The position numbers and the translations under genes are program-made. 64,000 nucleotides of DNA from Planctomycetota bacterium (lineage in GTDB: Bacteria > Planctomycetota > MHYJ01 > WSZJ01 > JACPWG01), in NCBI GenBank assembly GCA_016197205.1, contig JACPWG010000194.1, positions 52,429-116,428 on the forward strand, given 5' to 3'. Each line of letters starts with the position of its first letter. The stretch's first letter is position 1. The notes under the pieces are model-generated. The model ran no database searches, was not told the origin of the DNA, and worked only from the letters and a program-made list of their open reading frames with translations. This document shows positions 1,574 through 6,065 of the stretch, piece after piece.

Positions 1574-1601
1574 TTGAAAACCCTGTGCTCCCTGCTATAA
1601 T
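1574..1601 (+). promoter_or_regulatory. sigma70-like promoter (TTGAAA-16 nt-TATAAT) about 160 nt upstream of the GGDEF gene
   Basis: Read directly: ccTTGAAAaccctgtgctccctgcTATAATgg. Implies a long 5' leader. Confidence 0.5.
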
Positions 1602-1760
1602 GGCGGTCAAGGTCGCGCTTTCTCCCTTCGACCGCGGTCGCCCCGGCCTCGCCTCCTCTCCGATTCGGGCCTCGGCCCCGCCTCGGGGTGCTGTGCCCGG
1701 CCACGTCGTTGCGCCGCGCTTGCTCCATCCACTCGGCCCGCTTGACGAGGCGTCCACCGG

Positions 1761-4700: not shown

Positions 4701-6065
4701 CCCGCCCCCGCCGCCGCGCCGCCGGAGGCCGGCCCCCACCCGGCCGGTCCGCGCACGCCGCGCACGGAGGCCGTGCACCGCGCCTCGGCCTGGCTCCGCG
4801 CGGACCCGGAATCCCTGCTCGCGCCCGAGCTGCTGAAGGAACTGGCGCCGACGCTGGAGATCCTCCTGCTCGACCAGGAGGCCGCCGTCGCCGGCCGCCT
4901 CATCGGGCGTCTCGCGGGGAACTTCCTGCACCGCCTCGCCCAGACGCTCGTCGCCACGGCGGAGGCCTACCTCGTGCTGCTCGAGAAGGCGCCGCGCCCC
5001 GTCCGCGACTTCCTCCTCCCGCGCTCGCTCACGAGCGTCGTGGACGCCCTGCGCGGCGAGACGAACGTGCCGGCCTTCGGCAAGCTCGTGGACCTCGCGG
5101 TGGAGCTGACGCGGGAGTTCGTCGCGGACCGGAACTACGAGGCGGCGAAGCGCACGATCTGGGCGATGGGAAAGCAGCGCCAGGGGAAGGACGTCGCGAC
5201 GCCGGAGCTGCGGAAACTCGCCGAGGAAGGGCTGCGGCGGATCGTCGAGGGGGACTCCGGGGACCAGCTCATCCGCGACCTCCGCTCGGTGGAGGAGGCG
5301 ACCCAGTCCCTCGCGGTGCAGGTGATCACGGGCTTCGGCTCGGCGGCCGTCCGCCGGCTCGTGAACGCGATCATGGAGACGGAGGAGTACCCGCTGCGCA
5401 AGGTCTTCGCCATCATCCTGCGCGAAGCGGGGGAGCAGGCCAAGGGGGAGCTGGTCAAGGAGCTGAACCCGTTTGCCCCGAGCGACCGCTACGCGCGCAT
5501 CCTCGAGGTGCTCGACACGGTCTCTACGTCGGTCGAGACGGAAGCGTTGTCGGCCCTCCGGCACCGGGACGAAAAGGTCCGGCGCGAGGCCGTGAACCTC
5601 CTGCGGCGCCTGCCGCGCGACCGGTCCGTGAAGTTGCTCGGCCAGGTCCTCCAGGACGACGACCCCGCGGTGGTGACCTCCGGGGTGATCGTGCTCGGGG
5701 AGCTGCGCTACCGGGAGATGGCCGACTCGCTCGTACGGATCCTGGATCTGGCGAAGGACGAACGGCTGTTGCGGGAGACCTGCGTGGCGGCGGCCAAACT
5801 GAACGACGAGCGGCTGATCCCCGCGCTCGGCCGGGTCCTGTGTCGGACCGGGTTCCTGGGGCTGTGGGGAGGCCTCCAGGAAGGGATGCGCGCGGCCGCG
5901 GCCTGGGCGCTCGGCGAATTCGCCAACCCCGACGCCGTCGCGCTGCTGAACAAGGCGTCGAACGATCGGAGCGCGCAGGTGCGCTCGGCGGCCAAGATGG
6001 GCTTGAGGGCGCGCGGTTCGCCTCTGCCCGTGGGCGATGCCCCTCGGCCGCCGCTGCCCGGCTAG
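1761..6065 (+). CDS. Multidomain signalling protein: N-terminal GGDEF diguanylate-cyclase domain (AGDEF variant with RxxD I-site), STAND/AAA_16 P-loop NTPase, long helical TPR-like region, C-terminal HEAT/PBS-lyase repeats
   Basis: GGDEF domain: [10 protein letters not shown]...[28 protein letters not shown]...[19 protein letters not shown]. P-loop NTPase: Walker A GARGIGKT, Walker B [8 protein letters not shown]. C-terminal repeats: [15 protein letters not shown]...[14 protein letters not shown]. Confidence 0.85.
   Translation: [1434 protein letters not shown]

Follow-up and report, generated by a model that had tools for sequence, protein, structure and literature searches.

To our knowledge, the sensors that switch almost all of the diguanylate cyclases studied so far are receiver, PAS, GAF, globin or membrane domains, and they act through a dimeric helix. 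PleD and WspR are activated by receiver-domain phosphorylation, through induced oligomerisation or dimerisation, and carry the active-site motif GGEEF. Here we describe a gene on contig JACPWG010000194.1 of a Planctomycetota bacterium, within a 64,000-nucleotide stretch that was analysed as a whole and that we call the window. Its 1434-residue product has a GGDEF domain that matches those of PleD and WspR in fold, in catalytic residues and in the presence of an RxxD I-site five residues upstream of the active-site motif, but this domain is joined to a STAND NTPase instead of a receiver domain and its motif reads AGDEF rather than GGEEF. An N-terminal effector, an NTPase domain (NOD) and a C-terminal repeat sensor follow one another in the classical STAND layout, and the putative sensor comprises two copies of a family-specific alpha/beta module, which we term MOD, and a HEAT/PBS-lyase-type solenoid. 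With moderate confidence, we read the protein as a cytoplasmic diguanylate cyclase that is transcribed alone and is controlled by a MalT-like STAND switch.

VCA0965 of Vibrio cholerae likewise combines AGDEF with an RxxD I-site, and it synthesises cyclic di-GMP (c-di-GMP) in vitro and in vivo (PMC3974145). VCA0965 is, however, bound to the membrane, its N-terminal sensor is a transmembrane one, it has no STAND, MOD or HEAT region, and its motif is a sporadic variant, AG(D/E)EF accounting for ~1.6% of GGDEF domains in general (PMC3974145), whereas in the GGDEF-STAND family AGDEF is a family-wide signature. The NOD fold is common to our protein, to MalT of Escherichia coli (PDB 8BOB) and to PH0952 (PDB 6MFV). 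MalT has no N-terminal enzymatic effector and ends in a LuxR helix-turn-helix (HTH) output that is absent here, and the sensors of MalT and PH0952 are TPR/SUPR-like, in contrast to the two novel alpha/beta modules and HEAT/PBS repeats of the GGDEF-STAND protein. Pfam and NCBIfam scans found no GerE/LuxR HTH in the protein, whose C-terminus is the HEAT solenoid, and it is not a regulator of the LAL/MalT type.

The mycobacterial class III adenylyl cyclases Rv0386, Rv1358 and Rv2488c have the order cyclase-ATPase-TPR-LuxR. Cyclase-STAND fusions, both those of the Rv0386 type and the TOMM kinase/cyclase fusion proteins (TIGR03903), resemble our protein in uniting a palm-fold, dimerisation-dependent cyclase with an AAA_16 STAND NTPase and helical repeats. 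Positions 475-926 of TIGR03903 align to residues 189-648 with an E-value of 1.1e-30, in a match that fails the equivalog cut-off (106 versus 706 bits). The GGDEF-STAND protein differs from these fusions in having a GGDEF domain (c-di-GMP) in place of a class III cyclase (cAMP), in lacking both HTH and kinase, and in its sensor. Two further groups that contain GGDEF and AAA_16 are likewise uncharacterised. GGDEF-AAA_16-TPR proteins, such as P0049 from Fermentibacteria, have the N-terminal GGDEF-NOD head in common with ours, but their sensor is made of TPR repeats (TPR_12 and TPR_MalT in P0049), not of MOD-MOD-HEAT. In the Pkinase-AAA_16-(TPR)-GAF-GGDEF proteins (for example in Herpetosiphon L057, Tissierella L011, Duganella and Dactylosporangium) the GGDEF domain is C-terminal and the sensor is of the TPR or GAF kind. 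A scan of genome contigs with generic GGDEF motifs gave unrelated GGDEF proteins, and its two longer matches were of the Pkinase-AAA_16-GAF-GGDEF type. An 'AAA16' match in a paper on BdcB was rejected, as it was a catalogue number.

Related GGDEF-AAA_16 architectures are common in databases, all major parts of the protein except MOD are of known kinds, and the gene has already been auto-annotated: NCBI holds an identical protein, MBI3273435.1, as "MAG: diguanylate cyclase [Planctomycetes bacterium]". We searched the literature for work on N-terminal GGDEF-STAND proteins and found none.

The GGDEF domain and its family-wide AGDEF motif

Pfam places the GGDEF domain at residues 16-174 with an E-value of 2.9e-45 and 154.4 bits (cut-off 23.8), covering profile positions 2-161 of 161, and TIGR00254 matches with 160.6 bits (cut-off 37.4). 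Fold and sequence match PleD, WspR and other diguanylate cyclases, the identity to WspR being 43%. The signature is not the canonical GG(D/E)EF: residues 94-98 read AGDEF, with the D/E-E-F portion and the preceding R-Y intact. The first-pass annotation of this DNA had proposed an N-terminal GGDEF domain with RYAGDEF and an RNDD I-site five residues upstream, fused to a STAND-type P-loop NTPase, and all of this was confirmed, the first part by the Pfam domain scan and the motif positions, the fusion by the AAA_16 match, the Walker motifs and the fold. It had also called this AGDEF-bearing protein unusual; in the family AGDEF is the consensus.

A word-indexed homologue search returned ~35 full-length homologue clusters, 1160-1702 residues long and 20-38% identical, all of which contain GGDEF and AAA_16 and most of which also contain HEAT_2; the named members come from Planctomycetota metagenome-assembled genomes. 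When the MOD-MOD segment was used as the query of an exhaustive phmmer search, matches at E <= 1e-3 fell into at least 275 representative clusters at 50% identity. The best 150 of these 275 were classified with purpose-built hidden Markov models, and all of them show the order GGDEF-NOD-winged helix-helical-MOD-MOD-HEAT or an apparent truncation of that order; 107 could be scored for active-site motifs. The family is found mostly in Planctomycetota metagenomes and is not a one-off oddity. The earlier suggestion that large STAND proteins with a GGDEF output are rare holds in relative terms, and no experimental study of them was found in the literature, but with at least 275 clusters and an entry already in NCBI the architecture is not unique to this gene.

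Some members depart from the common plan. An N-terminal Ser/Thr kinase is added to the GGDEF-NOD-MOD-HEAT core in P0131 (2140 residues), P0138 (1762 residues) and P0042 (1498 residues), and in P0131 and P0138 the GGDEF match is much weaker (47-49 bits), so that the domain may be degenerate. At one locus (L006:5001-13570) two paralogues of 1413 and 1443 residues, 42% identical and both with AGDEF, stand head-to-tail with a 4-nt overlap, an arrangement that hints at hetero-oligomeric STAND assemblies.

AGDEF is present in 29 of the 35 close homologues and in 84 of the 107 scorable family members, and is a family signature rather than a quirk of this gene. The residues D53, D55, D70, R92, D96, F98 and K168 do not vary across the same 35 homologues, and at least 90% of them keep N61, G95 and E97. 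We take D53, N61, D70 and K168 to be the equivalents of PleD D327, N335, D344 and K442, going by the PleD numbering and by the WspR alignment; all four are present, and are invariant or at least 90% conserved in the family. RxxD, by comparison, is kept in 23 of the 107 scorable members (~21%). Catalytic residues that are near-invariant alongside an I-site that is mostly lost point to selection on the catalytic centre and not on product binding, as one would expect of an enzyme more than of a receptor.

The replaced first glycine of GG(D/E)EF, together with an RxxD that is intact here and aligns with the WspR I-site, could also belong to a catalytically dead domain that acts as a receptor for c-di-GMP (or GTP) through its I-site or A-site, in a protein whose STAND part is a scaffold and whose output runs through HEAT/MOD. 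The AGDEF domain of NbdA is described as degenerate in a preprint (bioRxiv 10.64898/2026.03.20.713172), and ~10 of the 107 scorable members have clearly degenerate motifs (SGDSF, GGDSF, AGDAF, AVDAF, GGDAF), so catalysis is not retained in every family member. We nevertheless consider a dead receptor unlikely: the I-site is confined to the minority of members given above while the residues that bind metal, base and phosphate hardly vary or do not vary at all, VCA0965 is an active enzyme with AGDEF, and the domain lies at the N-terminus beside the NOD, the effector position in STAND proteins.

The spacing between N61 and D70 is nine residues, which we take to be that of PleD N335 and D344, so that D70 is presumably the guanine-specifying Asp equivalent to PleD D344. 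Hypr cGAMP synthases (GacA) have Ser at the PleD D344 position; in our protein this position, assigned from the N61-D70 spacing, holds an invariant Asp70 and not Ser. The residue and the spacing would fit a GTP-specific enzyme that makes ordinary c-di-GMP and not a Hypr enzyme. The family-wide Ala in the signature motif does suggest an altered active-site geometry, and with it perhaps another product such as Hypr-type cGAMP or linear pppGpG. Among the readings considered here we hold this to be the least probable, given that the specificity residue, as assigned here to D70, is invariant, that VCA0965 makes c-di-GMP with AGDEF, and that in one subclade the operon partners carry MshEN c-di-GMP receptor domains.

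This divergent subclade (P0029, P0030 and P0032) is ~27% identical to the query, has a single MOD and is rich in K, N and I. Its genes lie in the order TPR protein, two MshEN-T2SSE ATPases, GGDEF-STAND protein, solo 153-residue MshEN protein, T2SSF and pseudopilins, so that three MshEN domains are encoded per operon, and this order is kept in three loci (L007:1596-10738, L088:2387-11752, L089:1032-10111) between which proteins are as low as 42% identical. ATPases of this type, associated with type II secretion systems (T2SS), are described as c-di-GMP receptors (PMC4624772). The conserved linkage to MshEN receptor genes therefore supports c-di-GMP synthesis, and provides independent genomic evidence for c-di-GMP as the output of the family. 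The operon also has the appearance of a c-di-GMP module that is complete in itself and serves a pilus or T2SS machine locally.

STAND core, sensor region and a model of activation

AAA_16 matches residues 199-375 with an E-value of 6e-19 and 69.6 bits (cut-off 32.6). Both halves of the P-loop NTPase signature are present, GxxGxGK[ST] as GARGIGKT and hhhhD[DE] as LLVMLDEF; neither G234 nor D349 varies, and K235 is kept in at least 90% of sequences. An hhGRExE motif before the P-loop and a GxP motif in the helical domain are said to define STAND proteins, a definition reportedly due to Leipe and colleagues in 2004. Both are found here, with R203, P449 and L450 conserved in at least 90% of sequences and G447 invariant. 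AlphaFold2 models were built on family alignments and reach a predicted local distance difference test score (pLDDT) of 90.2 and a predicted template modelling score of 0.81 for residues 1-660, and a pLDDT of 89.8 for residues 640-1434. They contain the core fold of NOD, helical domain and winged helix, 344-354 residues of which align structurally to MalT and Apaf-1, and in structure the NOD comes closest to MalT, a transcriptional regulator. A phmmer search of the PDB with the NOD region alone gave no match, and the relationship to MalT is therefore visible only at the level of the fold.

Beyond the winged helix, each MOD is predicted to open with two long helices, after which comes a beta-alpha-beta-alpha-alpha-beta-beta unit. 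MOD1 and MOD2 align locally with a score of 175, where shuffles score 31 +/- 5.6, which at the sequence level identifies them unambiguously as a duplication. In 38 diverse MOD copies the Y-P pair of YPxGS is invariant and the Asn of L-V-N-G is conserved in at least 90%, which makes these residues candidates for a binding site. Phmmer found no match to the MOD region in the PDB, a profile of the 38 copies searched against the PDB gave sub-domain noise only, and Pfam scans of the 38 copies at E <= 10 gave no recurring family; a profile search with MOD for homologous proteins returned two short fragments only, probably owing to its word prefilter; fold searches with the multi-domain AlphaFold2 model, MOD plus HEAT, were dominated by HEAT matches. 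Among the proteins retrieved, MOD occurs in no other context.

The C-terminal region has both the profile and the alpha-solenoid fold of HEAT/PBS-lyase repeats: HEAT_2 scores above the Pfam cut-off and HEAT_PBS just below it (20.3 versus 20.9 bits), and the closest structural relatives of the solenoid are the PBS-HEAT-type proteins alphaRep, deoxyhypusine hydroxylase, CpcE/F and YibA. More than 800 residues of helical repeats, labelled TPR and ending in HEAT/PBS repeats, had been proposed for this half of the protein. The HEAT/PBS end stands, but the helical portions amount to ~90 residues after the winged helix and a HEAT solenoid of ~420 residues. Between them the region is not all helical, since residues ~652-970 form the two alpha/beta modules and residues ~966-995 are disordered in the models. 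The TPR label falls as well: no TPR family matches the 1434-residue protein in Pfam at E <= 0.1, and the winged helix is followed by four helices only.

Two studies describe STAND proteins as monomeric with ADP and as multimerising on inducer binding and ADP-to-ATP exchange (PMC6468293, PMC4381067), and GGDEF catalysis, according to a third, requires dimerisation, in which two GTP-loaded domains meet (PMC7825114). Taken together with the STAND layout of the protein, these two properties make induced-proximity activation the most economical model. In the resting state the NOD would be closed with ADP and the protein would be a monomer, its N-terminal GGDEF domain kept apart from others. A ligand or a partner protein would bind to the C-terminal sensor formed by the two MOD modules and the HEAT solenoid, and this binding would open the NOD, allowing exchange of ADP for ATP and then oligomerisation. 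Oligomerisation would in turn bring GTP-loaded GGDEF domains together as an antiparallel dimer that forms c-di-GMP, and c-di-GMP bound at the I-site, RNDD in this protein, may exert feedback inhibition here and in the members with RxxD. What the analysis itself shows are the identities and folds of the domains, the conservation of their catalytic and NTPase motifs, the distribution of the family and the linkage of one subclade to c-di-GMP receptor genes; enzymatic activity, activation by oligomerisation and the role of the C-terminal half as a sensor are what we infer.

A further-reaching interpretation, which is possible but which we put forward only tentatively, is that the family is a distinct class of diguanylate cyclases in which induced oligomerisation, driven by an NLR/MalT-like ATP switch, controls the making of c-di-GMP, the duplicated MOD and the HEAT repeats read the trigger, the AGDEF site is adapted to this regime and the subclade feeds MshEN receptors locally. 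AGDEF would then be an adaptation that might, for instance, hold basal activity down as long as the domains are not driven into contact.

Several points weigh against a diguanylate cyclase under STAND control. Oligomerisation, nucleotide dependence and a ligand for the sensor are carried over in their entirety, by analogy, from MalT, Apaf-1 and PH0952; the description of the NbdA domain as degenerate and the clearly degenerate motifs of some family members, both given above, count here as well; and the family-wide change of G to A in the signature is left unexplained.

Genomic context and the promoter-like site

The gene order in the window is ALO-like oxidase fragment, MoxR (AAA_3), GGDEF-STAND gene, cyclic-nucleotide (cNMP)-binding protein, aroC, an open reading frame (ORF) of 767 residues, methyltransferase, TPR/peptidase-MA-like protein and rpsB-tsf-pyrH-frr, and the region is core chromosome. 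Pfam scans thus bear out the earlier identification of the two neighbours, MoxR upstream and a stand-alone cNMP-binding protein downstream. The MoxR ORF (496-1536, +) is of the classical AAA_3 type (209 bits), falls below the cut-off of the bpMoxR profile and has no adjacent DUF58/vWA partner; its listed start at 496 overlaps the preceding ORF, so that translation probably begins at the ATG near 586. The cNMP-binding gene (6357-6980, +) encodes a 207-residue protein that ends in a helical tail and lacks an HTH, its true start is likely to be ATG 6411 (MKIH...), and a lower-GC gap of ~290-345 nt separates it from the GGDEF-STAND gene. The cNMP-binding protein matches Pycsar cyclase/effector models of PADLOC weakly, and only in its cNMP domain.

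The first-pass annotation had seen in these neighbours a second-messenger hub. The three genes are adjacent and on the same strand, and according to Kaur et al. 2020 (PMC7159879) GGDEF domains turn up, rarely, in vWA-MoxR conflict systems, of which a hub with a nucleotide-generating component could be an instance. We consider such a hub highly improbable. When 12 homologue loci were compared, nine of the main clade and three of the divergent subclade, a MoxR or cNMP-binding neighbour was found in none, and the neighbours differ in all nine main-clade loci (SerRS, Rnf, ECF sigma factor, bacterial microcompartment shell proteins, FtsY/SMC, DNA polymerase III delta' and others); close relatives of more than 60% identity with the same synteny were not found. 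No vWA or DUF58 gene is present among the ORFs scanned, from ~200 to ~22,000 of the window. For the GGDEF-STAND gene there is a separate promoter-like site, 224 nt after MoxR, the cNMP gene comes only after a gap of ~290 nt, and the surroundings include aroC and rpsB-tsf-pyrH-frr. With no vWA/DUF58 gene, no conserved synteny and a MoxR below the bpMoxR cut-off, a vWA-MoxR (VMAP) conflict system was rejected.

An effector-STAND-repeat-sensor layout is also common to bacterial antiviral STAND proteins (PMC13581612), and an NLR- or Avs-like immune sensor, whose HEAT/MOD region recognises a phage or other foreign protein and whose GGDEF domain makes a cyclic dinucleotide alarm, might be built in this way. 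Neither the NTPase nor the effector, however, fits any defence-system model in PADLOC, the weak HEAT-ARM_XIII match (22.9 bits, E 3e-06) being to the repeat region only, and a defence system was rejected on this basis. The context is housekeeping, and at the nine main-clade loci the neighbours are housekeeping or metabolic genes and not defence islands; one of these loci has a single integrase. The nearest structural relative of the NOD is a regulator, MalT, the subclade is tied to a pilus/T2SS operon, and the guanine-specifying Asp fits ordinary c-di-GMP. An immune sensor is accordingly improbable in our judgement.

The predicted promoter and leader bear on the other part of our reading, that the gene is transcribed alone. 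The sigma-70-like site matches 11 of 12 consensus positions, while the shuffled region yields on average 0.1 sites of this quality against the one at 1574. Near-consensus sites of the same kind lie upstream of rpsB in the same window (13127-13154, +) and ahead of the GGDEF-STAND gene of the closest homologue (L003:5773-5800), and the predicted consensus therefore seems meaningful in these genomes, which suggests that an E. coli-type promoter consensus may be in use in these Planctomycetota. At the homologue's locus a terminator-like hairpin (5742-5763) precedes the promoter-like site. Lying among housekeeping genes and behind its own promoter-like site, the gene is therefore read as transcribed on its own. 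The strong promoter and 160-nt leader of the first-pass annotation agree, as far as sequence can tell, with this site and with an implied leader of ~155 nt.

The leader folds with no excess of structure over shuffles (minimum free energy z = +1.26), and Rfam gives nothing at gathering score in the leader or in the whole window, so a riboswitch or structured leader was rejected. The only match at E <= 1, a sub-threshold one to c-di-GMP-II-GAG at 1479-1559 (+) with 18.5 bits against a gathering score of 40 and an E-value of 0.67, precedes the predicted promoter and mostly overlaps the last part of the MoxR gene, and was judged to be due to chance. An in-frame stop at 1743 leaves ATG 1761 as the sole plausible start, the family alignment begins at the same Met, and the GC content at third codon positions (GC3) is 0.92, typical for real genes in sequence of ~70% GC. 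The features of the gene are collected in the table.

Table. Features of the GGDEF-STAND gene, in window coordinates
Feature	Residues	Position	Strand	Evidence
Sigma-70-like promoter consensus, TTGAAA-16 nt-(TG)TATAAT		1574..1601	+	11/12 consensus positions, extended -10 TG
Putative 5' leader, ~155 nt, C/U-rich		1602..1760	+	Inferred from promoter-like site; no structure detected
Coding sequence, family GGDEF-NOD-winged helix-MOD-MOD-HEAT, NCBI MBI3273435.1	1-1434	1761..6065	+	ORF, database identity
GGDEF domain: metal-binding D53/D55, N61, guanine-binding D70, K168	16-178	1806..2294	+	Profile, fold
I-site RNDD, five residues upstream of AGDEF	85-88	2013..2024	+	Aligns to WspR RSSD (R242 I-site)
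Active-site motif RYAGDEF	92-98	2034..2054	+	Aligns to WspR RYGGEEF
STAND NOD: FVGRQAEL 200-207 (hhGRExE-like), Walker A GARGIGKT 229-236, Walker B LLVMLDEF 344-351	199-412	2355..2996	+	
Helical domain and winged helix, including GxP motif GGNPLY 446-451	417-555	3009..3425	+	AlphaFold2 secondary structure, pLDDT > 90
Short helical 'arm', four helices	558-640	3432..3680	+	AlphaFold2; not a detectable TPR array
MOD1, first copy of family-specific alpha/beta module; YPPGS 675-679, LLLNT 712-716	652-806	3714..4178	+	
MOD2, second copy; YPEGS 841-845, LLVNG 878-882	818-970	4212..4670	+	
Pro/Ala-rich disordered linker	~966-995	4656..4745	+	pLDDT < 50, sequence
HEAT/PBS-lyase-type alpha-solenoid, ~22 helices	~1000-1418	4758..6014	+	AlphaFold2, Pfam

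Elsewhere in the window, three ORFs on the reverse strand have high GC3 and no Pfam match at E <= 1e-3: the one of 767 residues mentioned above (8606-10909, -), one of 770 residues (16938-19250, -) and one of 585 residues (20432-22189, -).

Implications for c-di-GMP signalling

We regard the finding as moderate rather than striking. If true, the gating of c-di-GMP synthesis by a STAND/NLR-type, ATP-dependent oligomerisation switch that acts on a GGDEF domain would follow another mechanism than those studied so far, one that would be digital, threshold-like and potentially hub-building, and that would parallel the activation of effectors by NLR proteins and MalT. The family offers a natural and conserved AGDEF site in which to study why the first glycine is dispensable, and MOD is a new candidate sensor domain without a sequence relative in Pfam or the PDB. 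The pilus/T2SS-MshEN operon of the sister subclade is a ready system for the study of local c-di-GMP signalling. In the literature that we searched, work on the c-di-GMP enzymes of Planctomycetota did not go further than censuses, which suggests that c-di-GMP signalling is little studied in this phylum, and the family provides an entry into it.

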